IMG/VR virus record: IMGVR_UViG_3300042196_000409
From: a virus
DNA: 64,000 nt
Strand: one strand, 5' to 3'
Made by a program: the position numbers and the translations under genes. Below the pieces are notes generated by a model, which had not been told where the DNA came from, did not search any database, and saw only the letters and a list, made by a program, of their open reading frames with translations. Below are positions 968-49,447 of the stretch, in pieces. Each line of letters begins with the position of its first letter. Position 1 is the stretch's first letter.

Positions 968-1516
968 TTACGATCTGATCTTGGCAAGCGCTCGTTCGAG
1001 CTTCTCGATCTTGGCGCGGTGCTTCGCTTGCTCGCGCTCCAGCACTTCGTCGCGTAGCTCTGGTTTGACGAGTGAGCTTACCCGCGGCGTGCGGCTCGCC
1101 TCTCGCGCGAGGTCCTTCTCGATTTCTCTCGCGACTAGCTCGCGGCCCATCTCGGTGAGGTGGAGCATGCCACCGTTCCTTGGCTCGATCAGACCCAGCG
1201 CGAGCGTTCGTTTGATGTGTGGGGCGTCGACGGCGGCCATGCGGCTCGGAAACGATGGGCCGTGTTCGAGGACCATCTGCGTGAGTGCGAACAGGTTCAC
1301 GCCTGTAAGCGTCATCTTCTTCGGCGGAGCCTTCTTCGGGTACCCGAAGCCGAGAGCTTGCGCGACTTCGTAACGCTCTGCGGGCAGACCACCGGCTAAG
1401 ATGGCGTCAATTTCGGTGTCGAGCTGCTCACGGGTCTTGAGCCCGGGCTTCTTCGGGATTCGACCGAGGGCCTCGCGGATCTCCTGATCGAGCTGGGCCG
1501 TTCGCTTCTTGGCCAT
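968..1516 (-). CDS. hypothetical protein with N-terminal KKRTAQLDQEIREAL motif
   Basis: 182-aa ORF, coiled-coil-like. N-terminus carries the [KR]K[KR]TxxQLDxEI motif shared with 5 other ORFs in the window. Confidence 0.5.
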   Translation of the reverse strand: MAKKRTAQLDQEIREALGRIPKKPGLKTREQLDTEIDAILAGGLPAERYEVAQALGFGYPKKAPPKKMTLTGVNLFALTQMVLEHGPSFPSRMAAVDAPHIKRTLALGLIEPRNGGMLHLTEMGRELVAREIEKDLAREASRTPRVSSLVKPELRDEVLEREQAKHRAKIEKLERALAKIRS

Positions 1517-2649: not shown

Positions 2650-3360
2650 TCAGTCTTCAGGGTTCCAGCGAGACGCTGGAACGGACGCTTGTCGCGGCTT
2701 GATGCGATACGTGACGCCCGGCTTTTTCTTTGCCTTGTACTCGTCCTGCGCTTCCTTCGCGTCTGCCCGCGTCGAGAAGTGTTCGTGGAGCACGCGTTCG
2801 TTCTTGGTGCGCGTGTTCACTTCGAGCAGATCGTAGACGGTGTGCTTGTCCGCGCGCCGGGTTGCGTGGCCTCTGAGCCGGCTCAGGTACTGGAAGTACA
2901 TTCGGGCCGTGGAGCCCGGCGCGTTCTTGCTCTTGCGGTAGCCGGCTTGTCGCGCGACCTCGGCAATGCGCGCGGCTTTGCTCATCGAGACGTCCGCGTG
3001 ATAGTCGCGCGTGAAGTCGACGCCCTCGGATTCGAGGAGACGTTTGGCCTCGTGGGGATCGAGCTTCTTCTTCCTTGCGTGGGACTGGCTCGGAGCCTTC
3101 GCCTTGCCTGTGAAGCGAAGGGCCTCAGCGGAGAACCACGTGGCGCCAGTGTGTCCGTCCTTGGACTTGGAAACGAGGTATGACAAAGCATCGCCCTTTG
3201 ATGGGCCGCTCTCGGTGTACATGCCGGGATGCGTGCTGTAACTGACGGCATGGCCGAATTGGCCTGGCTTCCAATACGGATGAGGACCCATGTCGTCGGT
3301 CTTCACGATCTGGACACGTCGCGGGGGTGTGATCGATGCTTGGATGTACTTGCCGGCCAT
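2650..3360 (-). CDS. hypothetical basic protein
   Basis: 236-aa ORF, Lys/Arg-rich with plausible composition. Confidence 0.45.
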   Translation of the reverse strand: MAGKYIQASITPPRRVQIVKTDDMGPHPYWKPGQFGHAVSYSTHPGMYTESGPSKGDALSYLVSKSKDGHTGATWFSAEALRFTGKAKAPSQSHARKKKLDPHEAKRLLESEGVDFTRDYHADVSMSKAARIAEVARQAGYRKSKNAPGSTARMYFQYLSRLRGHATRRADKHTVYDLLEVNTRTKNERVLHEHFSTRADAKEAQDEYKAKKKPGVTYRIKPRQASVPASRWNPED

Positions 3361-5805: not shown

Positions 5806-6096
5806 ATGAAGGAGCCGTGGCCGGTTCCCGCTGCGATCATGGAGCGCTCGATCGAGTTGGCGAACAAGGAGATTGCTGCGAAGCAGAGTGAGATCTACGA
5901 GGACGCATCCTCGCGCTGGATCAACCGTTGGGAGAGCGGCAAGCTCGACGCCGAGATGAGGCGCATGATCGAGGAAACGTATCGGAGGTTGTCTCGTGCT
6001 GAGGGCATGATTCGCCCGCGCGCGAGTGCCAGGAAGAAGAGTCCGAGGCAGCTCGACACCGAGATCGCCGCCACGCTCTCCGAGAAACGGAGATAG
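5806..6096 (+). CDS. hypothetical protein with C-terminal RKKSPRQLDTEIAATL motif
   Basis: Start at internal Met of the track ORF; a TTG at ~5721 is an alternative start. C-terminal shared motif. Confidence 0.45.
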   Translation: MKEPWPVPAAIMERSIELANKEIAAKQSEIYEDASSRWINRWESGKLDAEMRRMIEETYRRLSRAEGMIRPRASARKKSPRQLDTEIAATLSEKRR

Positions 6097-8786: not shown

Positions 8787-9548
8787 TCAAACACGCCATT
8801 CGACCACATCGCCACGATCCCGGGCCCATTCATCGTGGCGCTCTGCCTCGCGCTCCGAGCGGAAGCCTGCTCCGCAGGAACAGCGATACTCCTTGTCGCT
8901 CTTGGAAGAGATGGTGTGCTTCCGTGGAGCTTTGGTGATCTTGGTTGTCGTCGCGTGCGATCTGCGTCCCGGTGTGCGACTCAGCGGTCGTCCCGTAGCA
9001 GCCTTGAAGGACAGATCAGCTGGCCATCCCCACGTTCGACCACTGCGGTAGCGATCGATTTGCTCGGGTGTCATGCCTGACTGGGAATCGCCAAGTGCTT
9101 CAGCGATCTCTCGATCCAATTGGGCCGGTGACTTCTTCGTCGCGTGATGGCGTGACTTCGCAGGTGACGCTGACGCGCCTGACGCGCCTGACAAAAGCTC
9201 GACCTTGTAGAGCTTGCCCTTTGGCGGCCCAAGACTGACGTAACCCTCCTGTCCAGTGCCGAGGTTTCTCGACCACCAGCGATCCAACCCTTGGCCGAAT
9301 CGATCCTGATCGCTCTCGCGCTCTCGCAAGATCTCGACGTCGGCGCCCTGATACCGGAAGCGCAATCCTGGTTTCAGATCCTTCGCAGCAAGATCCTTTG
9401 TGCGCTTCTTGGGCATCGGCTCTTGGCAGCCTACCGTTTCAAGGGACAAAGTTGAAGTTTCACGCGCGCTGTCACCAGCGACGGCAAGACGCCGGATCGC
9501 GGCGTGGTCAAGGCGCTTTCCAACGTGCTCGACAAGCTGCGTAAACAT
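8787..9548 (-). CDS. hypothetical protein with internal TKKSPAQLDREIAEAL motif
   Basis: 253-aa ORF; shared motif encoded around 9085-9140. C-terminal CSCG..H cluster. Confidence 0.5.
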   Translation of the reverse strand: MFTQLVEHVGKRLDHAAIRRLAVAGDSARETSTLSLETVGCQEPMPKKRTKDLAAKDLKPGLRFRYQGADVEILRERESDQDRFGQGLDRWWSRNLGTGQEGYVSLGPPKGKLYKVELLSGASGASASPAKSRHHATKKSPAQLDREIAEALGDSQSGMTPEQIDRYRSGRTWGWPADLSFKAATGRPLSRTPGRRSHATTTKITKAPRKHTISSKSDKEYRCSCGAGFRSEREAERHDEWARDRGDVVEWRV

Positions 9549-14912: not shown

Positions 14913-14993
14913 CGGCTTGTGGGGTCTTGGCCTCGCGGCAACGTGAGGAGGGAGCCAAAGAGAACTAGGTGAGAGTCCTGGGGACCCGATCTT

Positions 14994-15066: not shown

Positions 15067-15069
15067 CCT

Positions 15070-15110: not shown

Positions 15111-15111
15111 A

Positions 15112-15183: not shown

Positions 15184-15201
15184 CGATTGGATGCTGGATA
15201 T

Positions 15202-15310
15202 GGGCGTGGTGGCGGCACGGATGCGGGTTCGATCCCCGTCGGGTCCACGACGGGCCCGTGGCTGGTGCCTACGGAGATATCCACCAGGGGTTCGACTCCC
15301 CTCGCGTCCA
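15202..15310 (+). ncRNA. ~110-nt tRNA-like RNA with G3-U70 acceptor and tmRNA-type T-arm
   Basis: 5' GGGCGTG pairs with 3' CGCGTCC. T-arm AGGGGTTCGACTCCCCT is identical to the tmRNA T-arm at 47.56 kb. Internal GGGTTCGATCCCC second T-like loop. Confidence 0.3.
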
Positions 15311-15316
15311 CGACAC

Positions 15317-15389
15317 GGAGGACAGTTCACCTAGGGGTGATGGCGGTCCTACAAACCGCTCGCGGTCGGTGCAATCCCGACGTTCTCTA
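15317..15389 (+). tRNA. tRNA-Val(TAC)
   Basis: Acceptor GGAGGAC/GTTCTCT with wobbles. Perfect anticodon stem GCGGT/ACCGC. Loop ccTACaa. T-loop TGCAATC. Confidence 0.55.
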
Positions 15390-15396
15390 CGATGAC

Positions 15397-15467
15397 GTCT
15401 CGTTAGCACAGCGGTAGTGCAGTCGCTTGATAAGCGGCCGACGAAGGTTCGACCCCTTCACGAGACA
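15397..15467 (+). tRNA. tRNA-Ile(GAT)
   Basis: Acceptor GTCTCGT/ACGAGAC. Loop ttGATaa. T-arm GAAGGTTCGACCCCTTC. Confidence 0.7.
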
Positions 15468-15476
15468 CGACGGCCT

Positions 15477-15547
15477 GGGCCTCTAGTTCAATGGAGAACG
15501 TCTGCCTTATCAGCGGAATGTTGAGGGTGCAAATCCTTCGGGGCCTA
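15477..15547 (+). tRNA. tRNA-Ile(TAT)-like (anticodon assignment uncertain)
   Basis: Acceptor GGGCCTC/GGGGCCT. Loop ctTATca. T-loop TGCAAAT. Confidence 0.4.
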
Positions 15548-15555
15548 CGATTCGT

Positions 15556-15629
15556 GGTGTGCGTAGTCATCTGGTGAAGACGCTGGGTTGTGGTCCCAGT
15601 TCAGGCGAGTTCGATCCTCGTCGCACACC
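15556..15629 (+). tRNA. tRNA-His(GTG) with G-1
   Basis: Extra 5' G pairs with C73. Perfect anticodon stem CTGGG/CCCAG. Loop ttGTGgt. Confidence 0.7.
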
Positions 15630-15635
15630 CTGTCT

Positions 15636-15710
15636 CGAGCAGTAGCTTAGCCTGGCTAAAGCGTTGGTCTGGGGGACCAAAGATCGCAGGTTCAAATCCT
15701 GTCTGCTCGA
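15636..15710 (+). tRNA. tRNA-Pro(GGG)
   Basis: Acceptor CGAGCAG/CTGCTCG. Perfect anticodon stem TTGGT/ACCAA. Loop ctGGGgg. Confidence 0.6.
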
Positions 15711-15787
15711 CGAAAGGAGAATGCGGCTGATCTACTGTCAGATCTGTCGCCAAGGAGCGTCTAGTCTACCGAAGGAGAACGAACGTC

Positions 15788-16324
15788 ATGGAGCCGACAC
15801 ATCAAACGCTTGTCCTTAGTCAGGGCTATGAGCCCGTTAAGATCGTTTCGTGGCAGCGCGCGATCACGATGCTCTTCCTCCACAAGGTCGAAGTGATCGA
15901 GGAGTACGATCGCAACATCAAGACGACGTCGTTCGTCGCCAAGATCCCCGCGGTCGTGCGGCTGCTCAAAGCGTTCCGTCGGTACAAGAAGCCGGTGAAG
16001 TTCTCCCGGATCAACATCTACGGCCGCGACAAGTACACCTGCCAGTATTGTGGCGTGAAGAAGTCGATCCACGATCTGACGTATGACCACATCGTGCCTC
16101 GATCGCGAGGCGGCAAGACGACGTGGACGAACATCGCAACGTGCTGCCAAGGCTGCAACGGCAGGAAGGCGAACCGTACGCCCGAGCAGGCCGGCATGCG
16201 TTTGCTCCAGGTGCCCGAGCAGCCAATCTCGTCGCCGGTGCTCGTCGTGACCGTGAGCCGCCAGTCTGCACCCGACGCGTGGCGCGACTACCTGTACTGG
16301 ACCGGCGAGCTGGACCAGGACTGA
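15788..16324 (+). CDS. HNH endonuclease (homing-type, embedded in the tRNA array)
   Basis: CQYCG..DLTYDHIVPRSRGGKTTWTNIATCCQGCNGRK contains the Cys4 zinc knuckle plus the HNH catalytic His/Asn. Confidence 0.8.
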   Translation: MEPTHQTLVLSQGYEPVKIVSWQRAITMLFLHKVEVIEEYDRNIKTTSFVAKIPAVVRLLKAFRRYKKPVKFSRINIYGRDKYTCQYCGVKKSIHDLTYDHIVPRSRGGKTTWTNIATCCQGCNGRKANRTPEQAGMRLLQVPEQPISSPVLVVTVSRQSAPDAWRDYLYWTGELDQD

Positions 16325-16349
16325 TCAAGCGAGCGACGTGCTCGCATCT

Positions 16350-16423
16350 GGGAACGTGGGAGAGATGGAGTCTCCGCCGGCCTGTCACGCCGGAGGTCGC
16401 GGGTTCAAGTCCCGTCGTTCCCG
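16350..16423 (+). tRNA. tRNA-Asp(GTC)
   Basis: Acceptor GGGAACG/CGTTCCC. Perfect anticodon stem CCGGC/GCCGG. Loop ctGTCac. Confidence 0.7.
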
Positions 16424-16528
16424 CCGATAGCGTGGTCGATCACCGCGCGTCGATGACTCATCCTCGCAAGGGGCTCCTTTTTGGGATGCCGCGCACGTCG
16501 AGCGCTCGGCGACGCGGCTGGGTCTTCT

Positions 16529-16599
16529 GGGTCCATCGTTCAAAGGGAGAACGCGGCGTTCGCAATGCCGAAATGCGAGTTCGAGTCTCGCTGGATCCA
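16529..16599 (+). tRNA. tRNA-Ala(CGC)
   Basis: Acceptor GGGTCCA/TGGATCC with G3-U70 Ala identity pair. Loop ttCGCaa. Confidence 0.6.
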
Positions 16600-16618
16600 C
16601 GTTACGTAGTCCTACGAA

Positions 16619-16690
16619 GGGGCTGTCTGTCCAACGGGAAGACGCGCGTCTGGCTGACGCGAGATGACGGTTCGATTCCGTTCAGCTCCA
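16619..16690 (+). tRNA. tRNA-Ala(GGC)
   Basis: Acceptor GGGGCTG/CAGCTCC with G3-U70. Anticodon stem CGCGT/ACGCG. Loop ctGGCtg. Confidence 0.55.
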
Positions 16691-16727
16691 CGATCGCTGC
16701 TCCGCCGTGCGGTGCCTACACGCAACC

Positions 16728-16806
16728 ATGATGCCTCAAGGTGAGGCGTCGGCCTATGGAGCCGAAGCAGTCAGGTTCAATTCCTGATCATCCCGCAAGG
16801 GATCGT
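16728..16806 (+). ncRNA. possible degenerate tRNA-like element
   Basis: T-arm TCAGGTTCAATTCCTGA and hairpin TCGGC-ctATGga-GCCGA are present. No pairing acceptor stem found by eye. Confidence 0.2.
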
Positions 16807-16834
16807 GCACCGTGCACTCGAGCAGCGAACACTT

Positions 16835-17086
16835 TCAGTGGCCATGGCAAGGGCCACGGCAGACCATGCATTCTTCCTCGAAGCTGTCGTCGAGGGTGTC
16901 TGCGCCAGGATGCGGATGGATCACTTCCTCTTCGAGGACGTCTCCAACCAAGGCATCGTTGGTGGTGGTAGCGCAGCGTGGACACAAGAGCATCGATTCA
17001 GCGTGCCGCCACGCCTGGGGGAACTGATCGATGGCGGTGATCTCCTGCGTCTTGCCACAGCGAGCGCACACAACGAATGTCGCCAT
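16835..17086 (-). CDS. small zinc-ribbon protein
   Basis: CARCGK...CPRC and CMVCRGPCHGH Cys clusters. Lies between tRNA genes on the opposite strand. Confidence 0.35.
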   Translation of the reverse strand: MATFVVCARCGKTQEITAIDQFPQAWRHAESMLLCPRCATTTNDALVGDVLEEEVIHPHPGADTLDDSFEEECMVCRGPCHGH

Positions 17087-17134
17087 GCTTCTACGCTACG
17101 TTACCGTCGGTATCACCGACAGTTTTTGGCTCTC

Positions 17135-17207
17135 GGGCAGGCATGTTCCAAGGGGGCGAGCGGGATTTGCAATCCTGCTGCGGCCGGTTCAATCCCGGTC
17201 CTGTCCA
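17135..17207 (+). tRNA. tRNA-Ala(TGC)
   Basis: Acceptor GGGCAGG/CCTGTCC with G3-U70. Loop ttTGCaa. Confidence 0.6.
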
Positions 17208-17415
17208 CGCGTCATGCTTACGCCGGCACCTCGCGATGTCTCCCGGCTCTACTCGGGATCGATTGCGGCGCGCCGACGAGCACAGCCTCGATGTCGGCTC
17301 TATGAGTTACGTCCGGGGCAACTCAAGCGGGCCGTCCGCGGGACTGTCTCCCCCGCTTTGCTAGCCGTTCGCTTGTGCCCGAGGATATCAGACCCAGCTC
17401 CGCGCTGTGTTTCTC

Positions 17416-17486
17416 GCCGCTATCGTCAAACAGTAAGACGCTGCTTTGGTAGGGCAGAAATCCGGGTGCGATTCCCGGTGGCGGCT
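17416..17486 (+). tRNA. tRNA-Thr(GGT)
   Basis: Acceptor GCCGCTA/TGGCGGC. Loop ttGGTag. T-arm CCGGGTGCGATTCCCGG. Confidence 0.6.
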
Positions 17487-17494
17487 CGAATCGA

Positions 17495-17565
17495 TCAGGG
17501 ATCGTCTAACGGTAGGACACGAGATTTTGGATCTCGGCATGAAGGTTCGATTCCTTCTCCCTGAA
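17495..17565 (+). tRNA. tRNA-Gln(TTG)
   Basis: U1-A72 acceptor TCAGGGA/TCCCTGA. Perfect anticodon stem CGAGA/TCTCG. Loop ttTTGga. Confidence 0.7.
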
Positions 17566-17569
17566 CCAT

Positions 17570-17641
17570 GCATGGGTCGCCAAGAGGCTAGGCACTTCTC
17601 TGCAAAAGAAGCACACGCGGGTTCGACTCCCGTCCCATGCT
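17570..17641 (+). tRNA. tRNA-Cys(GCA)
   Basis: Acceptor GCATGGG/CCCATGC. Perfect anticodon stem CTTCT/AGAAG. Loop ctGCAaa. Confidence 0.7.
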
Positions 17642-17645
17642 CCGC

Positions 17646-17720
17646 GCTCCTGACGCCCCATTGGAAGGGGTCTCTGTTTTCTAAACAGATCCGTTGCAGG
17701 TTCGAGCCCTGTCAGGAGCA
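17646..17720 (+). tRNA. tRNA-Arg(TCT)
   Basis: Acceptor GCTCCTG/CAGGAGC. Anticodon stem TCTGT/ACAGA. Loop ttTCTaa. Confidence 0.6.
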
Positions 17721-17729
17721 CGAGATCTT

Positions 17730-17802
17730 GGTCCCGTAGCCTAGTGGACGAGGCACGCGTTTCCTAAACGCGCTCACGCAGGTTCGAGTCCTGCCGGGAT
17801 CA
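17730..17802 (+). tRNA. tRNA-Arg(CCT)
   Basis: Acceptor GGTCCCG/CGGGATC. Perfect anticodon stem CGCGT/ACGCG. Loop ttCCTaa. Confidence 0.65.
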
Positions 17803-17827
17803 CGCACGTCATCATCGTCGACTTCAC

Positions 17828-17898
17828 GCCTCCGTACGTGGACGTGACCCGAGTTTCCGAAGCTTGGTGGGCTGGTTCAAATCCAGCCGGAGGCACCA
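17828..17898 (+). tRNA. atypical tRNA-like gene with encoded CCA (possible 9-nt anticodon loop)
   Basis: Perfect acceptor GCCTCCG/CGGAGGC followed by A-CCA. T-arm GCTGGTTCAAATCCAGC. Core folds only with stem CCGAG/CTTGG around the loop tttCCGaag. Confidence 0.35.
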
Positions 17899-17901
17899 TA
17901 C

Positions 17902-17973
17902 GTCGGTGTCGTTCAATGGTCAGGACCACGGCCTTTCACGCCGTAGATACGAGTTCGATTCTCGTCGCCGATA
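17902..17973 (+). tRNA. tRNA-Glu(TTC)
   Basis: Perfect anticodon stem ACGGC/GCCGT. Loop ctTTCac. T-arm ACGAGTTCGATTCTCGT. Confidence 0.55.
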
Positions 17974-17994
17974 CGATCTTCACGCACGTGCCAG

Positions 17995-18329: not shown

Positions 18330-20249
18330 ATGACGACAGCAGAGAAGTTGGGACCTGCGGAGAAGATTCTCCAGACGCTCCTGAATCACACGGACCACAT
18401 GGTCCACAACCGTCCCGGCATGGTGTCGCCGGATGCTCGTCACACGATCGGTGTGCGCTGGGTGTTCGTCACGCACAAGGAAGAGAACGGCCAGAAGGTC
18501 GTCTACGAGCTGACGAAGGTCGGCAAGAAGACGAACGAGATCCGCAGGGGCGTGATGCGCGCCGACGGCAAGGTCGAGGAGAACGGCAAGATCGTCGGCG
18601 AGTACCGCTCGCCTGGGCTGTTTCCCGAGGTCGCCGCCTGGATGTATCGCCAGGTCGCTGAGGTGTGGAAGATGGACAACGAGTTCGCGGCGCGCTGGGC
18701 GTCGTACGCGTTTGGCCAGGAGCACCGTGACCTCAAGGTCGTGCTCGCGGCCTTCATGCTCGTGCAGACGCGCAAGGGCGATCCCGTGCTCGACGGGGGC
18801 AAAGTCGCGTTCTACGACGACGACTTCCGCGACATCGGCGAAGCCATGATGCTTATCCACCGTCGGGACGGAAAGGATCTGAGCCCGAAGCTCCTGGTCC
18901 GCGTCCACGACCTTCTGAAGGTGCCGGGCGTCGCGGCCATCAACCGCGAGCTGGGCTTTGGTAACTCGGCGCGTCGCCCGTTCCTTGGCCGTTGGTCGAA
19001 GGCGGTCGAGAAGTGGCTCCAGTTTCGCGAGGAGAACCCCAGGATGCTCGACGGCCTCATCAAGGCCGGCTTCAAGAGTACCGTGAAGGATCTCGCGCGT
19101 ACGGTCGGCTACAAGCCTCAGACCCCGAAGTTCTTCGAGGCCCTCGGCTGGGCACAGGATCAGGCCAAGGACGGCCGGCGCTCGATCCTCATCGGCGTCG
19201 ATCTGGCCAAGGCCGAGACCTGGAACGATCTGACCGAGGCGCAGATCTGCGAGAAGATCGTCACCGAGAAGCCGGGCTGGAAGCGCATCGTCGGTCTCTT
19301 GCCGAAGAAGCTCGGGGTCACGCGCGCCATCATGAGCGCAGCCGTCGAGTCGAACGCGCTGTCCAACAAGGACCTCATCATTCTCACGCCCACGCTGGAG
19401 GAGCTGGGGCTCCTGGAGGTCAAGGAGGTCAAGGCGAAGTGGGAGCGCGCCCTCAAGAAGGCCGAGGACGACATGCGCGCGGGCAACATCGCGCGCAACG
19501 TGAAGTCCAAGGACGTGCAGGAGCAGCTCCAGGGAGCGGCCGACACGGCGCTCCAGAAGACGATGGAGGTGGCGACGCGCAACATGCGTATCTACGTCCT
19601 CATCGACATCTCCAGCTCGATGCAAGGTGCCATCGAGAGGGCGAAGACGCTGCTCGAGAAGTTCCTCCAGGGCTTCCCGCTCGATCGCACACACATCGCG
19701 ACGTTCAACACGGTGGGGCGCGTGATCGAGATCAAGCACGCTTCGGCGGCTGGCGTGGCCCAGGCATTCAAGGGTTTCACTGCCAGCGGGGGCACGACGC
19801 ACGGTGCAGGTGTGATGGCTCTTGCCCCGTTCCCGCCGAAGGAGGACGAAGACACGCTCTTCATCATCGTTGGCGACGGCGGCGAGAACTTGTCGTTCCA
19901 CACCTACGTCGAGCAGTCCAAGCTGCGTCCGATGGCCTTCGGCTTCCTGATGCTGCCTGGTCAGAACTACGGCGCACCGGAGAAGACGGCGGCACAGCTC
20001 GGCATTCCGTGCTTCAAGATCGAGCAGAACACGTTCGACGACGTCTACGCGATCCCGCGGACCATCCGCGCGCTCGTGGCGGCGACGCCGGTCGGTGCCG
20101 TGGCGCGTGCGGCGGCGACGCCGCGTGTGACGCTCGTCGAGACGATCCTCAAGACGGATCTGCTCAAGAAGCCTGCATGGGCGGCGACGGTCCGTGCGAT
20201 CGCCGCAGCGGACGCAGCACCCGCGGCGACGGCCGCGGCGACGGCCTAG
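18330..20249 (+). CDS. Ro60-like protein (alpha-helical TROVE-like N-region + C-terminal vWA/MIDAS domain)
   Basis: vWA MIDAS DISSSMQG..TASGGTTHG..IIVGDGGEN at residues ~415-560. ~410-aa helical N-region. Architecture and size match Ro60/Rsr; the TROVE assignment is inferred. Confidence 0.55.
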   Translation: MTTAEKLGPAEKILQTLLNHTDHMVHNRPGMVSPDARHTIGVRWVFVTHKEENGQKVVYELTKVGKKTNEIRRGVMRADGKVEENGKIVGEYRSPGLFPEVAAWMYRQVAEVWKMDNEFAARWASYAFGQEHRDLKVVLAAFMLVQTRKGDPVLDGGKVAFYDDDFRDIGEAMMLIHRRDGKDLSPKLLVRVHDLLKVPGVAAINRELGFGNSARRPFLGRWSKAVEKWLQFREENPRMLDGLIKAGFKSTVKDLARTVGYKPQTPKFFEALGWAQDQAKDGRRSILIGVDLAKAETWNDLTEAQICEKIVTEKPGWKRIVGLLPKKLGVTRAIMSAAVESNALSNKDLIILTPTLEELGLLEVKEVKAKWERALKKAEDDMRAGNIARNVKSKDVQEQLQGAADTALQKTMEVATRNMRIYVLIDISSSMQGAIERAKTLLEKFLQGFPLDRTHIATFNTVGRVIEIKHASAAGVAQAFKGFTASGGTTHGAGVMALAPFPPKEDEDTLFIIVGDGGENLSFHTYVEQSKLRPMAFGFLMLPGQNYGAPEKTAAQLGIPCFKIEQNTFDDVYAIPRTIRALVAATPVGAVARAAATPRVTLVETILKTDLLKKPAWAATVRAIAAADAAPAATAAATA

Positions 20250-20256
20250 CTTCGTT

Positions 20257-21195
20257 ATGGGGTGGCGCGATTTACTCCAGACGGGCGACGAGAAGGTGAC
20301 CCTTCCGTGGCTTGGCGGCAGGACGCTCTACTCCACTGCGCAGCGCTGGTCGATCGAAGGGCGCCTCCCGAAGGACTACGGGTGGCACACGTTCAAGATC
20401 GCCAACCGGGAAGCTCACGCACAAGGGCCAGCTGATCCGCAACCGGATCTGCTTCAGCATTCCGTGCGCGGTTACCTGGTTGGCGATCGCATCGTCGCGG
20501 ATGACGTCCGTGTCGATCCAGATCCCAAGGGCATCGTGAATTTCTCCGAGACGGTGTTCCTGCTCGACGAGGGCATCGATCGGTTCGCGCGTGTGCGCGC
20601 GGGGCGCATCAACAAGGAGGGCCCGCTGGTCTACCAGGGCCTCGAGATGCCGCTCGGCCAGGAGGACGCCGTGCTCGAAGCTTTCCTCGAACAGAAGACG
20701 TCGGTCGCGGACATCAAGAACGTACCGCCGGGGCTCGATGCGGCATTCCGCATGGAGAGCTGGCAGCGCGCCGAGGCCGAGCGTCGCCGCATCGAGCTGG
20801 AGCGCATCCGTTGTGAAGAGGAGGAGAAGCGTCAGAAGGAGGAGCGTCGCCAGGCGCTCGTGAAGAAGCTCGGGGACGGTGAAGGCCGTCGCGAGATGGC
20901 GCTCCACGACTTCGACGCTGCGGCACGCGCAGCACTCGCGGTGGGCGGCGCGGTCTTCCTCGACGCGAAGTCTGTGCGCAAGAACGAATGGGCGGTCCGC
21001 TACCGTATCGGTAACGACCGCCAGCGGTTCGAGTGCGTGTGCAACGAGCGCCTTCGCATCGTCGACGCGGGCATCTGTCTCGTCAATCACGCCACCGACG
21101 AGAGGGGCGACACTTTCTTCACGCTCGAATCACTCCCAGCCGTCGTGCAGCAGGCGCAGCGCGAGCGACGGCTGGTCATCTTTCGTCACGTGTAA
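20257..21195 (+). CDS. hypothetical protein
   Basis: Internal ATG (MGWRDLL) after an Arg-rich leader. Charged helical middle, ends ..QRERRLVIFRHV. Confidence 0.45.
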   Translation: MGWRDLLQTGDEKVTLPWLGGRTLYSTAQRWSIEGRLPKDYGWHTFKIANREAHAQGPADPQPDLLQHSVRGYLVGDRIVADDVRVDPDPKGIVNFSETVFLLDEGIDRFARVRAGRINKEGPLVYQGLEMPLGQEDAVLEAFLEQKTSVADIKNVPPGLDAAFRMESWQRAEAERRRIELERIRCEEEEKRQKEERRQALVKKLGDGEGRREMALHDFDAAARAALAVGGAVFLDAKSVRKNEWAVRYRIGNDRQRFECVCNERLRIVDAGICLVNHATDERGDTFFTLESLPAVVQQAQRERRLVIFRHV

Positions 21196-24423: not shown

Positions 24424-24454
24424 CTCTGAGAAGCAGCCATTCCCTAGTGTGCTT

Positions 24455-24526
24455 ACACGCATAGCTCAACGGTAGAGCATCGGCCTACGAAGCCGAAGGT
24501 TGGGACTTCAAAACTCCCTGCATTCA
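24455..24526 (+). pseudogene. degenerate tRNA-Arg(ACG)-like element
   Basis: Canonical D-arm GCTCAACGGTAGAGC and anticodon arm TCGGC-ctACGaa-GCCGA. T-loop is 9 nt and the acceptor strands do not pair. Confidence 0.3.
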
Positions 24527-24567
24527 ACAAAGCACTCTTCACTCGGCTGCCCTCTAATTTCCTGACG

Positions 24568-27442: not shown

Positions 27443-27523
27443 GCGTCAATGGTGGAACAAGCAGACACGGTGCTCCTAAAAAGCACTGCTCATGGCATGA
27501 GGGTGCAAATCCCTCTTGACGCA
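27443..27523 (+). tRNA. tRNA-Leu(TAA), type II
   Basis: Acceptor GCGTCAA/TTGACGC. Perfect anticodon stem GTGCT/AGCAC. Loop ccTAAaa. 12-nt variable-arm hairpin. T-loop TGCAAAT. Confidence 0.6.
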
Positions 27524-27530
27524 CGTTTCC

Positions 27531-27607
27531 GTCGCGATAGCCCAACTGGAAGCGGCAGTGGTCTGAGGGGCCATTCAGTGCGGGTTCGAATCCCGCTCGC
27601 GACACCA
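27531..27607 (+). tRNA. tRNA-like gene with encoded CCA (anticodon not resolved by eye)
   Basis: Perfect acceptor GTCGCGA/TCGCGAC plus A-CCA. T-arm GCGGGTTCGAATCCCGC. Confidence 0.4.
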
Positions 27608-27626
27608 TCAAGGAAGGAGGAGCCCC

Positions 27627-28187
27627 ATGACGCAGCAAGTTTGGTTCACGAGCGACACTCATTTCGGCCACACGAACATCGTGAAGTACAGCGGGCGTCC
27701 GTGCGCTGACGTGCACGAGATGAACGAAGCGCTCGTCCTCAACTGGAACGCGGTCGTGAAGCCCGGCGACCTCGTGTATCACGTCGGCGACTTCGCGCTC
27801 TGCGACGTCGAGGCCGCGACGAAGATCGTGAAGCGCCTTGCAGGCCAGAAGTACCTCGTGTTTGGAAACCACGACAAGGCGCTGCGCAAGGACAAGATCT
27901 TCCTCGGGCACTGGATCTGGGCGAAGGACATGGCGGACATCACGGTCGGATCGCAGCGCATCGTGCTCCTGCACTACGCGATGCGCGTGTGGAACCAGAG
28001 CCACCGTGGCGCTTGGCAGTTGCACGGACACTCGCACGGTTCGCTCAAGGAGGAACCGCACTTGCTCCAGGCGGACGTCGGCGTGGACTGCTGGAACCAA
28101 CGTCCGGTTTCGTTCGAGGAGCTCGTCACGAAGATGGCGACGAAGAATTATCAGCCCGTCGATCATCACGGGCGTCAAGACGAGTGA
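27627..28187 (+). CDS. calcineurin-like metallophosphoesterase
   Basis: Motifs DTHFGH, GDF, GNHD, GHSHG in canonical order. 186 aa. Confidence 0.75.
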   Translation: MTQQVWFTSDTHFGHTNIVKYSGRPCADVHEMNEALVLNWNAVVKPGDLVYHVGDFALCDVEAATKIVKRLAGQKYLVFGNHDKALRKDKIFLGHWIWAKDMADITVGSQRIVLLHYAMRVWNQSHRGAWQLHGHSHGSLKEEPHLLQADVGVDCWNQRPVSFEELVTKMATKNYQPVDHHGRQDE

Positions 28188-28214
28188 CTGATCGAACTCC
28201 GCCTAGTACGTTTC

Positions 28215-28290
28215 GCCGACGTAGCCCAACTTGGTAGCAGGCAATGCGCTTAGATCGCATCCAGTGCTGGTTCAAATCCAGTCGTCGGCA
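28215..28290 (+). tRNA. class-I-shaped tRNA with Leu anticodon TAG
   Basis: Acceptor GCCGACG/CGTCGGC. Perfect anticodon stem ATGCG/CGCAT. Loop ctTAGat. 5-nt variable loop. T-arm GCTGGTTCAAATCCAGT. Confidence 0.5.
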
Positions 28291-28424
28291 CGATGAAAAA
28301 AGAAAGCCTACTCGCGTCGACGTCGCACATGCACTACTGGCGGCCCGAGGGGGCGGGTGTTCGTGCAGAGGCGCGACGATAGCTTTCGGCTTGCAGTGAC
28401 CTTCGCAGACAGCTCTGACACCAC

Positions 28425-28501
28425 GTCGTCGTGGTCCAACGGGTAGAGGCGTCCCGCTCAAGACGGGAAAGTTGCGGGTTCAAATCCCGCCGACGACACC
28501 A
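28425..28501 (+). tRNA. class-I-shaped tRNA with Leu anticodon CAA, encoded CCA
   Basis: Acceptor GTCGTCG/CGACGAC. Perfect anticodon stem TCCCG/CGGGA. Loop ctCAAga. 5-nt variable loop. T-arm GCGGGTTCAAATCCCGC. Confidence 0.5.
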
Positions 28502-32749: not shown

Positions 32750-33208
32750 ATGAGTGACAAGATCGCGAGGCTCGGGATCCAGCGCGACAACGACCTGATG
32801 TACTACATCAAGGATGGCGACGTCTGGGCCACGCCGCGCAAGCAGAAGGGTCAGCCCAAGGGCAAGGCCCGGAAGATTGCTCCGGCCGGCCTCGAGATGG
32901 ACTACAGCCGTTATATTTACTTTCTCGACGGTGATGGGGACGTTGCGCGCAAGGCACGCGCCCTCGGCGGTGGCGGTCGGAAGGCGAAGGCTAAGCCGGC
33001 CAAGGTCGCGAAGCCAAGCAAGGCGGCGAAGTCGGTAGCGCCGTCGACACCGTCAACATCGGCGCCACCGAAGAAAGTCGGCAAGAAGAGCGAAGCTCAG
33101 CTCGACCGCGAGATCGAGGAGTGTCTCGCGCAGGCCGAGAAGGGCGGGAACGGGAACGAAGGCAGCGACGAGTCAGCCAAGCCCGCTGGCAAGAAGAAGC
33201 ACCGCTAG
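32750..33208 (+). CDS. hypothetical Lys/Ala-rich protein with KKSEAQLDREIEECL motif
   Basis: 152-aa ORF carrying the shared motif near its C-terminus. Confidence 0.5.
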   Translation: MSDKIARLGIQRDNDLMYYIKDGDVWATPRKQKGQPKGKARKIAPAGLEMDYSRYIYFLDGDGDVARKARALGGGGRKAKAKPAKVAKPSKAAKSVAPSTPSTSAPPKKVGKKSEAQLDREIEECLAQAEKGGNGNEGSDESAKPAGKKKHR

Positions 33209-33221
33209 CTGCTAGCAGTGG

Positions 33222-33506
33222 CTATGCCTCGGGTGTGGTGTGGTTGGGTAGAGTCGATCGGTGCTCGCGCAGATCAGTGAGTGCGGCCTCGTCGAGGCTC
33301 TCGAACAGTTCCCAGCACACCTCGCGTCGGGCCTCGACAAAACCCATTTTCCTTAGCCGATTGTCCTGCCACACAATCCACCAGAAGCGGTTCGTCTTGT
33401 CGTACGTGAGCCAGACGGTCGTCTTGCCGATCGTTCGTTTCTTGGCGATGACACCGCAGCGATCGCTCTGGCCGGTCTGTGGATCGACGGCAACCAGGTC
33501 CTTCAC
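33222..33506 (-). CDS. hypothetical protein
   Basis: 94-aa ORF, Trp-rich, protein-like. Confidence 0.4.
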   Translation of the reverse strand: MKDLVAVDPQTGQSDRCGVIAKKRTIGKTTVWLTYDKTNRFWWIVWQDNRLRKMGFVEARREVCWELFESLDEAALTDLREHRSTLPNHTTPEA

Positions 33507-33781
33507 ACTGACGATCCTACCAGACCACTACGACGAAGTTGCGTCCACACCGCGGGCTGGGCGACACTTACGAGGATGCAGCGTGATGACCGTGCGGCGA
33601 CGACGGCGGTCCCTTCCGTCGTAGACCAGCAGCGCGGTCAGTACCTAGCCGCGGCCGATGGAAAGAAGAGTGGCGGTGCTGGAGGCGTTTTGCTTCTTCT
33701 GGGGATCGCGGCGGGCGTGTACGCGCTTTCCCCGGGCGCACGGCACTTCTACAAGCACGGCTATTTGCCGCCCTACCGTCG

Positions 33782-34240
33782 ATGAACCACTCGCGTTCTC
33801 CCCGCTTGCGCTTGCTAGGCCGCGTCGCCGGCCTGGTGATCTACCTCGTTGATGGTGAGAAGGTCCGTGATGTGATCGACATTGACTTCACGATGGGCGG
33901 CAACGAGGCGCGCTACAGCTACGTTCCACCTGGCGAGATTTGGATCGACAACGCAGAGCATGTGCTCGATCGCACCGCGACGGCTCTTCATGAGCTGGTA
34001 GAGCGCGATCTCATGCTTCATCACGGAATGAGCTACGACTCTGCTCACGACGCCGCGAACGCCCGCGAGCGCGCGTTTCGCCAAGACCTTGAGCGCCGCC
34101 GCCCGTCGCGGTTCGATGCCCGTCGCGTCGGAGAGGCATACCGCATCTATTTCCGAGAGAAGCCGATCCGCAAGAGATCGCGCCAGCTCGACAGTGAGAT
34201 TGCCGCGGCCCTGGCGCGGCCCGATAGGAGTACCTCGTGA
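33782..34240 (+). CDS. hypothetical protein (HELVE..HH metal-site-like) with C-terminal RKRSRQLDSEIAAAL motif
   Basis: ALHELVERDLMLHHGMSYDSAHD. Shared motif at the C-terminus. Overlaps the next gene (GTGA). Confidence 0.45.
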   Translation: MNHSRSPRLRLLGRVAGLVIYLVDGEKVRDVIDIDFTMGGNEARYSYVPPGEIWIDNAEHVLDRTATALHELVERDLMLHHGMSYDSAHDAANARERAFRQDLERRRPSRFDARRVGEAYRIYFREKPIRKRSRQLDSEIAAALARPDRSTS

Positions 34241-34623
34241 GATGGAAAACGCTTGTTGCAGATCTCGACGAAGCCAAGGAGCGCAAGCAGCTCCGCGGGC
34301 GCATTCAGCGGTTGCTTGACAAGTGGCAGCCGATCTTGGGCGTTACGATCGACGACTGGGATCTGAGGACGATGAAGAAGTACTGGGGTTCGTCCCGACG
34401 AGCCGGTTGCGACATGTTCGAGTGTCGGCCTGGGCACATCACTTTCAACACCGAGCTCGCGAAGCTGCCACCGCGCTATCTCCAGTACATCGTGATCCAC
34501 GAGCTGGTTCATCATCTGACCGACGGGCACGATAAGCGTTTCTACAAGCTGATGGATCAGCATCAGCCGGGCTGGCGGCGGATGCAGGCGCGGATCGAAG
34601 AGCCGCTGACCCAGTACAGTTGA
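34237..34623 (+). CDS. DUF45/YgjP-like zinc metallopeptidase (HExxH)
   Basis: YIVIHELVHHLTDGHDKRFYKLMDQ matches the YgjP/M48-like signature. Confidence 0.6.
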   Translation: MRWKTLVADLDEAKERKQLRGRIQRLLDKWQPILGVTIDDWDLRTMKKYWGSSRRAGCDMFECRPGHITFNTELAKLPPRYLQYIVIHELVHHLTDGHDKRFYKLMDQHQPGWRRMQARIEEPLTQYS

Positions 34624-34626: not shown

Positions 34627-35286
34627 ATGGCGACGCTTGACGAGCTGGCTGCAAGCATCGATGGCTACGTGACCAAGTATATGGGGATCCTTGCGATCGA
34701 CGGAGAGCGCCCCAGCATCAAGCTACGAAGCAATCTCGGATCAAAGTGGCTCGGGCGTTCGACGTGGTCCCCAAGTCGTCCTCACACGACATTGCTCGAG
34801 CTTCAGCAGTCCATTCTCGGGGACGACAGAACACTCGAACGCGTTGTCGCTCACGAGATGGTCCATCATCGTGATGCGCTGGCGATCTCCGAGAACGATG
34901 TCGTGCTTTTACGCGTCGGAATCAAACCCGAGGCGCACGGCGCTTCGTTTCGCGAAGGTGCTGCGCGCATCAACGAGGTCATGGGACCAGGCTTTGTCAC
35001 AGCGGTCTCAGACAAGGAGTACGTACACGCTCCTTCTCGTAAGAAATTTGTTGTCTTGATCACGCCACTGCCGGACGGTCGGCTTGGCTGGACGTGGGCT
35101 GCTCGCCTTGGAGGCAAGGCGCAGGGGTGGGTGGACGAACTCGTTGGGCGTGGATCGCGCCTCGTGTACACGACAGATGAGCGGTGGACGAGAGGGCGCA
35201 AGATCAAACGCTACGGGGGCTATTCTGTGCCCAGGGACAGTGAAGACGCTGCGCGGCTTCAGGATCTCTTCAGGAGCGTTACTTGA
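34627..35286 (+). CDS. SprT-like HExxH metalloprotease-domain protein
   Basis: VVAHEMVHHRD motif. 219 aa. Tandem with the previous HExxH gene. Confidence 0.5.
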   Translation: MATLDELAASIDGYVTKYMGILAIDGERPSIKLRSNLGSKWLGRSTWSPSRPHTTLLELQQSILGDDRTLERVVAHEMVHHRDALAISENDVVLLRVGIKPEAHGASFREGAARINEVMGPGFVTAVSDKEYVHAPSRKKFVVLITPLPDGRLGWTWAARLGGKAQGWVDELVGRGSRLVYTTDERWTRGRKIKRYGGYSVPRDSEDAARLQDLFRSVT

Positions 35287-47547: not shown

Positions 47548-47910
47548 GGGTGGAGGCGAGGGGAGTCGAACCCCTGTCCGAAGATGCATCCGAACGAACT
47601 TCTACGCGTGTAGGGCGCTGTTTGTGGTCTCGAACTCGACGGTAGCGACCGACCTGCGAGTTCAACGAGCTGACGAATCTCGATCTCCGTGTGTCAGCGC
47701 TTCAGGAGATCCAGCCTGATTGTGGCGGTGCTTCGTGGCTACAGACGGAAGCTACGAGCACCGTCGTCGAGCCTGGTGTTCAGGCTGCGGCGAGAGCAAC
47801 AGCGCCGTTGTTGTCGTTCGCAGTTGCAGGTTTGCCCATTTTTACGTGGCCTTGGGCGCCACGACGCGCGATCCGAACTTTCTCATCCTCGTCGAAACCG
47901 GTACGCCCCC
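47548..47910 (-). ncRNA. ssrA: tmRNA (SsrA), tag ANDNNGAVALAAA
   Basis: Minus strand starts GGGGGCGUACCGGUUUCGACGAGG (tmRNA 5' consensus). Tag ORF GCG AAC GAC AAC AAC GGC GCU GUU GCU CUC GCC GCA GCC UGA at nt ~93-134. 3' T-arm AGGGGUUCGACUCCCCU plus acceptor CGCCUCC pairing the 5' end with G3-U70. Confidence 0.8.
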
Positions 47911-48022: not shown

Positions 48023-48099
<77 letters not shown>

Positions 48100-48181
48100 A
48101 GTGTTTTTTCGATGACGTCGTTCCTCTCATCACGCTCGTCTAGTCGCAGTCGCTCGTAGCGACTCCTAGACGTTGTGTGTT

Positions 48182-48270
48182 GGCAGGGAAGGTCAGTCAG
48201 GTGACGACGGCGCTCTCGAAAAGCGTTTGCCCCTAAAAAACGGGGTCGGGTTCGAGTCCTAGTCCTGCCA
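48182..48270 (+). tRNA. tRNA-Ser(CGA), type II
   Basis: Acceptor GGCAGGG/TCCTGCC. Anticodon stem GCGCT/AGCGT. Loop ctCGAaa. Long variable hairpin CCCC-taaaaaa-CGGGG. Confidence 0.55.
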
Positions 48271-48275
48271 CGAAT

Positions 48276-48360
48276 GGAAGGCGAGTCCGTGCGGGTGCTG
48301 GAAGTCGTTTGCTAAACGACGTGCCGTGAAAGCGGCCGGGTTCGAGTCCCCCGTCTTCCG
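48276..48360 (+). tRNA. tRNA-Ser(GCT), type II
   Basis: Acceptor GGAAGGC/GTCTTCC. Perfect anticodon stem GTCGT/ACGAC. Loop ttGCTaa. Variable hairpin GCCG-tgaaa-CGGC. Confidence 0.55.
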
Positions 48361-48373
48361 CGGAGGCAACATC

Positions 48374-49058
48374 GTGAATGCATCATCATCTGATTCTGTC
48401 GTCGTCGAGGTCCGCGCGGCCGAGGGTGGCGCAGACGCCAAGCTCCTCGTGCTTGAGCAAGTGAAGATCTACCTGCGTCTCTGCACGCGGAGGTCTCTTT
48501 AGCGTCGAGATAGTAGAAGATCGGCCCGGCATCGCTGTGCTCTGCGTCGCGGGTCGCGGCGCCGCGGCACTGTTCGCGGGGGAGTGCGGTGGTCACCGAT
48601 GGCAGCGCGTGCCTGAGACCGAGAAGCGTGGACGTGTGCACACGAGCACGATCACCGTTGCGGTGCTTGAGGAGCCACGGCACGTCGAGCTGACGATCCG
48701 CCCCGAGGACGTCGACATCGAGACGATGCGTGGCTCCGGTGCCGGCGGCCAGCACCGGAACAAAACGGACTCGGCCGTGCGCGCACGTCACCGGCCGACC
48801 GGGATCGAGGTCCGCTGCGAGTCCGAGCGATCTCAGCATTTGAACCGCGAGCTCGCGCTGCGGGTCCTCGCCGCGCGCGTCGCGGAGCGGGCGCGATCGG
48901 CGGCGCAGGGAGAGCGCGATGCCGATCGTCGTCGGCAGCTCGGGTCTGGCATGCGCGGCGATAAGCGGCGAACAATTCGAACGCAGGACGACCAGGTGAA
49001 CGATCACGTCGACGGCCGGACGTGGCGATACAAGTCGTACGCGCGTGGTGACTGGTAG
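48374..49058 (+). CDS. prfH: PrfH-like class-I release factor homolog (GGQ), ORF split by a +1 frameshift at CTT-TAG-C
   Basis: Frame A 48374-48499 gives ..[31 protein letters not shown] then TAG. Frame +1 from 48501 gives [67 protein letters not shown] (PrfH-like). GGAGG lies 3 nt upstream of CTT TAG C, the geometry of the prfB frameshift site. Confidence 0.65.
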
Positions 49059-49060
49059 CG

Positions 49061-49447
49061 CTACGTCTCGATGCCGAGGGCTTTGAGGTCCGCGGCCGTT
49101 AGCCCCCCGGCGGCTGGTTCGGGCTGTTCCTCCGATAGGCCGAGCGTCTTCAGGTCTTCGGGGGTCAGCGCTCCGGCGGGTGGCTCTTTCGACGGATCTG
49201 GCGGAGGTCCGGGAACCTGCGGCAGCTCGCAGACATCGGTCGGCAAGCCCAGGTGCGCGAGGACCTTGGCCGTGCATCCGATGCAGAGATCCAGCGCTTC
49301 GTGCTCTCGAGGACTTGGGACCGGCAGCCCAGCGGCGATGAACGCCTGAAGCATTTTGTAGTCGACGCGCGGAGGGCTCACGCTCAGGGTCGAGTGACCT
49401 CCATCGCGTGCGAACTTCGTACTGCAAGCATCGCAGACCATTGCCAT
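49061..49447 (-). CDS. hypothetical Cys-containing protein
   Basis: Internal ATG (MAMVCDACSTKF..); Pro-rich C-terminus. Confidence 0.35.
   Translation of the reverse strand: MAMVCDACSTKFARDGGHSTLSVSPPRVDYKMLQAFIAAGLPVPSPREHEALDLCIGCTAKVLAHLGLPTDVCELPQVPGPPPDPSKEPPAGALTPEDLKTLGLSEEQPEPAAGGLTAADLKALGIET

Follow-up and report, generated by a model that had tools for sequence, protein, structure and literature searches.

A recurrent 15-residue peptide on otherwise unrelated small basic proteins of huge-phage-like genomes, a candidate docking or address helix

Why should six open reading frames (ORFs) that are otherwise unlike, scattered over 64 kb of viral DNA, carry the same short peptide? The question is raised by IMG/VR record IMGVR_UViG_3300042196_000409, whose 64,000-nucleotide stretch (the window) corresponds to approximately 86.5–150.5 kb of the 328,796-bp contig Ga0395805_0000018 (Joint Genome Institute (JGI) metagenome 3300037483) and has 62% GC. 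The peptide is 15 residues long, KK-S/T-P-A-QLDxEI-A-x-A-L, and a six-frame scan of the window for QLD.EI finds seven copies, with the KK-S/T-P lead-in, across six ORFs. An earlier note on this DNA had counted at least six instances, at either terminus or internal. All six are in place and their positions within the proteins are as it described; the count was short, since a seventh copy (KTREQLDTEIDAIL, 1397–1441 on the (−) strand) had been overlooked, as had the lineage-wide scale, the strong N-terminal preference elsewhere and an accompanying linker motif, HAT. The motif is confined to one clade of huge-phage-like genomes, in which it is found on hundreds of unrelated small basic proteins. 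We tentatively read it as a lineage-specific, portable short linear motif that serves as a docking or address helix, and give this reading as a whole slightly less than an even chance.

The recurrence is far above chance. Two hundred dinucleotide-preserving shuffles of the window gave a mean of 0.005 QLD.EI copies and never more than one, and 2000 residue shuffles of the 87 window proteins gave 0.007 expected copies, against seven observed; this excludes the chance coiled-coil heptad that the earlier note had named as the outcome that would undo its proposal. A hidden Markov model (HMM) built from the seven copies scores them at 32–38 bits, the next best match in six frames reaching about 8 bits. 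The copies lie on both strands, and each is in frame with an ORF that has the local signature of GC at third codon positions (GC3).

The constraint is at the protein level. The 45-nt sites of the window have a mean pairwise nucleotide identity of 60% and a longest identical run of 16 nt, and third codon positions are 47% identical as compared to 67% for positions 1 and 2. In 129 non-redundant copies from related contigs, the codons for Q, K, E, and I match the background (CAG 105 and CAA 24 observed, 105 and 24 expected), and there is a moderate skew at L, R, and A, with CTC, CGC, and GCC over-used in the core. No Rfam family overlaps the motif sites. As synonymous codons vary freely (CAG/CAA, CTC/TTG, GAC/GAT, ATC/ATT, and CTC/CTG/CTT/TTA among the window copies), selection is on the peptide, not on the DNA.

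All six carriers are basic (pI 9.4–10.0). With the motif masked, the best pairwise BLASTP match between them has E = 0.13, in line with the earlier claim that they share nothing else. Carrier 1 (968..1516, (−); 182 aa, pI 9.9) has two copies in tandem, copy 1 (KKRTAQLDQEIREAL, 1466..1510, (−); HMM 34.9 bits) right after the start Met and copy 2 (LKTREQLDTEIDAIL, 1397..1441, (−); 32.4 bits) nine residues after it, followed by an uncharacterised C-terminal part; the tandem is kept in ortholog P0162. In carrier 2 (5806..6096, (+); 96 aa from the ATG at 5806, or 119 aa in the JGI call; pI 9.9), copy 3 (KKSPRQLDTEIAATL, 6034..6078, (+)) lies six residues ahead of the stop. Carrier 3 (P0079; 8787..9548, (−)) consists of module A, HHAT-KKSPAQLDREIAEAL, module B, RRSHAT, and a C-terminal tail, so that copy 4 (KKSPAQLDREIAEAL, 9093..9137, (−); 37.3 bits) is internal, at the boundary between the beta-barrel module A and module B. 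The true start of carrier 3 is probably at 9416 (MPKKRTKDLAAK...), the 253-aa ORF being over-extended, because homologs begin MPKK(R/K).KDLA.KDLKPG; residues 1–44 of the longer form have a predicted local distance difference test (pLDDT) score of about 50 in the AlphaFold model. Copy 4 stays internal even with the later start. Copy 5 (KKSEAQLDREIEECL, 33083..33127, (+); 37.6 bits) is found 27 residues ahead of the stop of carrier 4 (32750..33208, (+); 152 aa, pI 9.9), behind a Lys/Ala/Pro-rich tail. Copy 6 (RKRSRQLDSEIAAAL, 34169..34213, (+)) is C-terminal in carrier 5 (33782..34240, (+); 152 aa), the founder of a family of 116 clusters (W33782), and copy 7 (SKSKKQLDREIADAL, 62583..62627, (−)) is C-terminal in carrier 6 (62559..63038, (−); 159 aa, pI 9.6). 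Most window copies are therefore C-terminal or internal, with one of the seven N-terminal. Copies are kept in place in orthologs of carriers 1, 4, and 6; the carrier 6 ortholog in L112 retains KQLDREIDKAL, and the carrier 4 ortholog in L129 has AELDADIAECL at the site, with E for Q. A distant homolog of carrier 4 in L118 consists of the N-terminal repeat domain alone, without the tail and without the motif. The Lys/Ala/Pro-rich stretch that precedes the motif in carrier 4 (RKAKAKPAKVAKPSKAAK...) recalls the tails of histone H1 or actinobacterial HU.

A logo was made from 295 non-redundant copies, in which the QLDxEI frequencies (0.96–1.00 at the five named positions, 0 to +5) are partly fixed by construction. 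Upstream, it has K at −5 (0.60) and −4 (0.91), S/T at −3 (0.92), P at −2 (0.72), and A at −1 (0.91); downstream, A at +6 (0.87), E at +7 (0.63), A at +8 (0.65), and L at +9 (0.89), then A/S/G and then basic residues. The fourth residue of QLDxEI is T, R, S, or Q in the window and R, T, S, Q, or A overall; the fifth is E in 97% of copies. Where the E of I-A-E is replaced, A, D, Q, S, or T is found. S/T-P-A-Q has the pattern of a helix capping box. On a helix, D and E would flank one face made up of L, I, A, and L, and R and E(+7) would be on the other, which is less conserved; the hydrophobic moment, at 0.28–0.57, is modest. In the AlphaFold model of carrier 5, the core (residues 8–126) has pLDDT >94 and the motif forms a separate helix (131–145; pLDDT 67–80). 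In carrier 3 (253-aa numbering), the beta-barrel module (50–118) has pLDDT >90, the linker <50, and the motif helix (141–153) about 78; beyond the motif the model has a weaker helical module and then a disordered tail. The models thus indicate, with moderate confidence, that the motif is a separate three-turn helix, detached from the carrier folds and set among disordered basic linkers.

Outside the window the motif is abundant, within limits. An exhaustive HMMER search of 1.84 billion cluster representatives with the motif profile gave 364 proteins, each standing for a cluster, at E ≤ 0.001. A word-indexed search with the motif alignment found 55 small proteins, nearly all of the form M-x(1-4)-[KR]K[ST]PAQLDREIAEAL followed by unrelated sequence. 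A set of 186 proteins has 192 copies, of which 99 are N-terminal, 85 (44%) internal, and 8 C-terminal; the 99 begin no more than 12 residues from the N-terminus, with Q typically at residue 6–10. Masked all-versus-all BLAST of the 186 proteins and the six window carriers (192 sequences) leaves 85 components. A Pfam domain is present in only 8 of 124 carriers (DUF6496, Sigma70_r4, DUF5661, SPOR, KOW-like EFP_N, and PGC7_Stella). The encoding contigs are 258–431 kb long, have 65–66% GC and are packed with small ORFs. A degenerate-DNA scan of JGI metagenomes gave 105 stretches on contigs up to 461 kb, some of them chance matches on bacterial contigs, and the HMM finds 214 copies on these JGI loci, up to 7 per 10 kb; motif-bearing contigs of 199–461 kb are among those found. 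The same scan of 185,579 GTDB genomes gave 60 matches, almost all chance (no KK-S/T-P lead-in, wrong frames), and the motif is therefore not a feature of a host lineage. In IMG/VR, the scan gave four matches, of which only L006 is convincing.

No model in Pfam, NCBIfam, or PHROGs covers the motif in the six carriers and related proteins, a full-text literature search for QLDREI within any word returned no paper, and a search on targeting sequences in huge phages returned nothing relevant. The earlier note had not recognised it as a known motif, which is borne out in the collections and literature searched, and our best reading is that a lineage-specific portable docking or address peptide of this kind is new.

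The carriers also bear out the view that the peptide is portable rather than a domain: they are unrelated, the predicted helix is separate, and in the family of carrier 5 its position varies. This family has a conserved core, TATALHE[LI]VER..YD.AHD..ER.FR, with a confident AlphaFold model; a fold search against the PDB gave no match at E ≤ 0.001 and hence no clue to the function of this carrier. Close members all end in [KR]xxxxQ[LIM][DE]x[ED]Ixx[AT][LFM] behind a linker of 0 to about 25 residues, and distant members end directly after the core without a tag. In P0037, the tag is at the N-terminus of the core; P0215 has the order core, tag, DUF5661, and P0029 is tag, DUF5661. Tag-less homologs on three contigs (53 kb, 64–69% GC) are accompanied by no motif copies and no HAT junctions, so the tag of this family tracks a genome-wide property. 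Carrier 3 illustrates shuffling on both sides of the motif. In relatives, at least six different C-terminal modules are found behind its module A, each separated from it by the tag, and module B (..MTPEQIDRYRSGRTWGWPADL..RTPGRRSHA) can have the tag and any of several N-terminal modules ahead of it. Module B also stands alone with the tag right after Met (P0312, P0314, P0138, and P0148). The same module thus occurs either alone with an N-terminal tag or behind HAT-KK-tag in proteins of two to three modules.

A second recurrent peptide, (R/S)(S/H)HAT followed by K/R/M/T, marks junctions of small modules in disordered basic linkers. Internal motif copies almost all have (R)HHAT, HAT, or HST ahead of them, and in about 25 proteins HAT stands on either side of the helix unit. 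HAT is 16-fold enriched in the carrier set once the core motif is masked (81 observed, 5 expected). Junctions without the helix also occur (GRRSHAT-K, SSHAT-MSLD, and ERAHAT-MPKKTPAQLDREI, in the last of which the fused downstream gene retains its own Met). In carrier 3, SRHHAT (9138..9146, (−); pLDDT <50) comes just before copy 4 and GRRSHAT (8949..8957, (−)) forms the second junction at the end of module B. A junction without the helix, SRLRGHAT-RRADKHTVYDLLE (2860..2868, (−)), lies in ORF 2650–3360, and the module that follows it matches the post-HAT module of P0103. A further possible junction, PSAHAT-KKTPRTK (60092..60100, (−)), falls in ORF 59921–60412, which has GC3 as its sole support. 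HAT codons are skewed to CAC GCG ACG, weakly (n = 33). One possibility is that HAT is a processing site.

We propose an amphipathic helix of three turns, N-capped by S/T-P-A-Q and preceded by the Lys pair, in which an L/I/L stripe would make the contact and the invariant D and E would flank it. Disordered basic linkers would tether the helix where small shuffled modules meet, and the helix would dock all carriers to one common partner, acting as an address label. Docking to a common partner is the probable general mechanism, and tandem or double copies suggest avidity for an oligomeric partner. As to where the label would lead, the destination that we favour, doubtful as it is, is the interior of the procapsid: the carriers would go into the capsid and be ejected along with the DNA, on the model of the capsid targeting sequence (CTS) of phage T4. 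This guess is made because the carriers are small, basic, fast-shuffling, and uncharacterised, matching the T4 internal proteins with their shared CTS, and because zincin-like genes lie beside carrier 5 or are themselves tagged (L068 and L109), as in packaged polyvalent proteins. Giant phages, moreover, package tens of ejection proteins trimmed after Glu (PMC5694885), which is a third reason for it, and the avidity suggested by the tandem copies is a fourth. The (R/S)(S/H)HAT linkers may be processing sites that free modules with new N-termini resembling the Met-proximal form. The fullest version, in which this clade (about 200–460 kb, 62–66% GC) would use the address helix KK-S/T-P-AQLDxEIAxAL together with HAT to build, process, and load dozens of combinatorially shuffled mini-effectors into the capsid for co-injection, is less likely again, roughly a one-in-five proposition.

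The T4 capsid targeting sequence of internal proteins is said to have been described by Mullaney and Black in 1996. T4 internal proteins IPI–III and Alt share an N-terminal CTS of 10–19 residues (PMC9026906), and the prohead protease cuts after Glu, at (L/I)-x-E in T4 and at A-x-E in giant phages (PMC9026906, PMC5694885). The likeness is that a large phage has a short, shared, transferable peptide on accessory proteins that are otherwise unrelated, small, basic, and fast-evolving, and the consensus here ends ...EIAE-AL where that of T4 ends ...EFIAE with the (L/I)-x-E protease site. The T4 CTS, however, is strictly N-terminal and is removed by gp21. Of the copies here, 44% are internal and some C-terminal, and only 63% have the E of I-A-E; homology to the CTS could not be demonstrated from the sequences, and any packaging or cleavage of the carriers is hypothetical.

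Bacterial microcompartment (BMC) encapsulation peptides and encapsulin cargo-loading peptides (for family 2 encapsulins, see PMC8049743) are short amphipathic helices or peptides that, on a flexible linker, dock unrelated cargo to a shell protein. Like these, the motif is predicted to be a helix (131–145 and 141–153 in the AlphaFold models); its linker varies in length, and it occupies a terminus or lies between domains. Its sequence differs, and its carriers are far more numerous and diverse. No BMC-H/P or encapsulin shell gene was found in the neighbouring loci or among the 81 window ORFs (25 of 29 Pfam families listed). Polyvalent proteins are large mosaics of 2–15 known enzymatic domains, linked to zincins; the prediction is that they are packaged and, once delivered along with the DNA, cut into their domains (Iyer et al. 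2017, PMC5512222). The carriers are likewise mosaics of shuffled modules with zincin neighbours, but at 60–400 aa they are an order of magnitude smaller, with one to three tiny uncharacterised modules; the zincin-like genes here are adjacent or tagged rather than embedded, and no linker of the HAT/KKSPAQLDREIAEAL type or tag grammar has been described for the polyvalent class. In contractile injection systems, Photorhabdus virulence cassette cargo carries N-terminal packaging signals of about 50–70 aa that are disordered and poorly conserved in sequence; the resemblance is in the use of a tag at the N-terminus to load various effectors into a particle derived from a phage. The bacterial beta-clamp-binding motif QL[SD]LF / QLxLxL, reportedly defined by Dalrymple et al. 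in 2001, also begins Q-L-D and is N-terminal, C-terminal, or internal in unrelated proteins. It requires hydrophobic residues at positions 4–5 or 4/6, where R/T/S/Q/A and then E (97%) are found here, which rejects it, and the present motif is helical with a KK-S/T-P cap. By analogy, the motif appears most like the T4 CTS or the BMC/encapsulin cargo peptides in mode, and a member of neither.

Several points weigh against the address reading and its capsid version. The tag is often internal or C-terminal, unlike the T4 CTS, and the protease-type (L/I)-x-E site, as I-A-E, is found in 63% of 295 copies and in three of the seven in the window. No structural, scaffold, or prohead-protease gene is seen in the 64-kb window (again 81 ORFs, 25 of 29 Pfam families listed). 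When a tandem consensus was searched by tblastn, cultured phages and PLSDB plasmids yielded chance matches only (E ≥ 3). Searches seeded with QLDREI-type words and patterns somewhat bias the consensus (R at position 4) and the N-terminal share, and the division between internal and N-terminal hinges on automatic start-codon calls. Clustering 990 ORFs from 112 loci brought out no convincing conserved neighbour that lacks the motif and could be the receptor; the ORF caller was noisy.

The rival that survives best, though unlikely on its own, makes the motif a processing signal: the carriers would be small polyproteins, with HAT and the helix cleaved by a phage protease (YgjP/SprT-like or prohead) that separates the modules. 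The enrichment of HAT at module junctions in disordered segments and its flanking of the helix unit on both sides speak for it, and 'HATM...' and 'HATMPKKTPAQLDREI' junctions match the starts of stand-alone homologs exactly. Metallopeptidase-like genes are adjacent, and peptidases embedded in polyvalent proteins provide a precedent (PMC5512222). Half of the copies, however, follow the start Met by 5–10 residues, and some are at the very end of the protein; in neither place is there anything to separate. The carrier 5 family keeps its C-terminal copy across approximately 50% sequence divergence. HAT fits no protease specificity known to us. Processing is compatible with the address-helix reading and may be part of it.

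A helix bound by an AAA+ unfoldase, protease, or chaperone, timing the turnover or folding of accessory proteins as a degron or adaptor tag, is less probable still, about one chance in ten. Candidate partners are a Cdc48-like ATPase of the window (50795–52774), host ClpX or Lon, and the phage DnaJ of L073; the first is an AAA+ protein with two ATPase regions and a winged-helix N-domain. The tag is predicted to be exposed at termini or in linkers, and the phage encodes a transfer-messenger RNA (tmRNA) with an ...ALAAA tag, hence a reliance on tag-directed proteolysis. Known bacterial degrons are terminal and less sequence-specific, and no evidence was found of an AAA+ gene co-occurring with the motif. 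We know of no similarity between the motif and ssrA, SspB-binding, or ClpX N-motifs.

Self-association, with the helices binding one another and gathering the carriers into one assembly or condensate, would suit an amphipathic helix of mixed charge and the tandem copies in some carriers. A helix of three turns is too short for a stable coiled coil, its hydrophobic moment is modest, and the invariant polar residues (Q, D, and E) speak for a specific receptor, so that we regard self-association as improbable, below the degron.

Even less probable is a nucleic-acid-binding arm, in which KK and the helix would contact DNA or RNA. It draws on the very basic carriers and linkers (pI 9.4–10), the Lys/Ala/Pro-rich tail of carrier 4, and the KOW-like, zinc-ribbon, or sigma-70 region 4 modules of some carriers. 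The invariant helix residues around the hydrophobic stripe are acidic or neutral (Q, D, and E), only the two lysines are basic, and there is no match to any DNA-binding family. A shared DNA/RNA-binding helix, one of the options offered in the earlier note, is accordingly unlikely, as the conserved face has D and E beside L/I/L. Ribbon-helix-helix (RHH; one beta-strand and two helices) and other DNA-binding families were rejected, with no Pfam or NCBIfam match over the motif and a single helix in the models. Clamp-binding, RHH, RiPP (ribosomally synthesised and post-translationally modified peptide) leader, membrane-targeting-helix, and recombination-linker readings are rejected on the residue pattern, the acidic face, or the codon data.

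Finally, a DNA-level element (a nucleotide linker for recombination and module shuffling, or a regulatory or RNA element, with the peptide as by-product) could draw on the placing of the motif exactly at shuffled-module boundaries and on the codon skew of the core and of HAT, and is largely refuted, the recombination-linker and RNA-element forms being essentially excluded, by the low DNA identity and short identical runs, the less conserved third positions, the background codon choice at Q, K, E, and I, the constant coding frame on either strand, and the lack of Rfam overlap.

If the address label is real, it groups hundreds of uncharacterised huge-phage proteins by a common destination, and the receptor could be fished with a 15-residue peptide such as TKKSPAQLDREIAEALG. 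Were the destination the capsid, the tag would mark proteins co-injected with the DNA, likely anti-defence or take-over factors, and could be used for loading foreign cargo. The two-part grammar, if true, would be a programmable cargo-loading code broader than the T4 CTS, with polyprotein-style processing new for phages. The shuffling of HAT-delimited mini-modules is an unusually clean natural case of linker-guided protein modularity and suggests that a DNA phage may process polyproteins. In metagenomes, the motif can also serve as a practical marker of this phage clade, some contigs of which are now binned into bacterial metagenome-assembled genomes (MAGs).

The simplest reading of the genome is that of an uncultured huge (jumbo) tailed phage, because the window has 42 tRNA genes and a tmRNA and because tail-fibre genes lie beside a motif gene in L073. 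The tRNA genes are mostly in two dense arrays (13084–17974, 24454–24528, 27443–28501, 41166–41464, and 48023–48271). ARAGORN also calls a tRNA with the 4-base anticodon 'tata' (41391–41464, (−)) and a tRNA-His(atg) (16726–16794). The tmRNA (47548–47910, (−)) is full length, scores 173.6 bits and has the tag peptide ANDNNGAVALAAA. The window has no head or tail genes, and megablast of 8 kb against cultured phages gave no match; beyond the window, the analysis extended to 9.6 kb of the contig upstream of it. In L073, the motif gene adjoins two collagen-like tail-fibre genes, and a DnaJ gene is on the same contig; a PHROGs search of large neighbouring ORFs for head genes found nothing but these tail fibres in L073. 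L073 is NCBI GCA_035480355.1 (DATIHU010000363.1, 117,769 bp), labelled as a Gaiellaceae MAG. Here a phage contig has probably been assigned to a bacterial MAG, and the host label is not to be trusted.

Three genes stand in a row at carrier 5. A YgjP-like metallopeptidase of the zincin type (34237–34623, (+)) has a start that overlaps the carrier 5 stop, and a SprT-like, likewise zincin-type, metallopeptidase (34627–35286, (+)) is the third. YgjP/SprT-like proteins in the relatives L068 and L109 bear the motif at their own N-terminus. Both enzymes are candidates for the processing discussed above. The synteny of the carrier 5 gene with the YgjP-like gene is present in the window and not in L129. 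The Cdc48-like AAA+ protein (50795–52774, (−); 659 aa, two ATPase regions, winged-helix N-domain) and a VWA/CoxE-like protein of 639 aa, followed by an uncharacterised 333-aa ORF (18330–21195, (+)), are possible chaperone or unfoldase systems of the phage. An ORF with weak HEAT-repeat matches (3845–4177, (−); 110 aa) lies inside the first carrier cluster, and the JGI gene calls include a weak dual-specificity-phosphatase-like (DSPc) ORF at approximately 10856–11359 (+). Together with the conserved [ST]-P at the helix cap, these raise the speculative idea of a phospho-switch or a HEAT-type receptor. A DSPc-like gene is also directly beside motif genes in L069/L070.

An RF-1-domain, release factor-like protein with a GGQ motif (48537–49058, (+)) is encoded near the tmRNA and two tRNAs, opposite a longer mechanical ORF (48312–49427, (−)). 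A PCRF domain is also detected in the window, and L084 has a gene similar to the RF-1-like one. Other window genes encode RtcB, PTH2, HNH nucleases, VWA, SPFH, ThiF, and AlkB-like proteins. Among the relatives, L068 (ENA ERZ26871208 contig_103639, 410 kb) has 5–7 motif genes within 6 kb. Gene content in the relatives L068 and L069 (the latter JGI 3300037137, 264 kb) includes IF3, a Mg-chelatase-like AAA protein, PAPS reductase, a UvrD-like helicase, an RNA ligase, and a papain-like peptidase, amid long runs of small uncharacterised ORFs.

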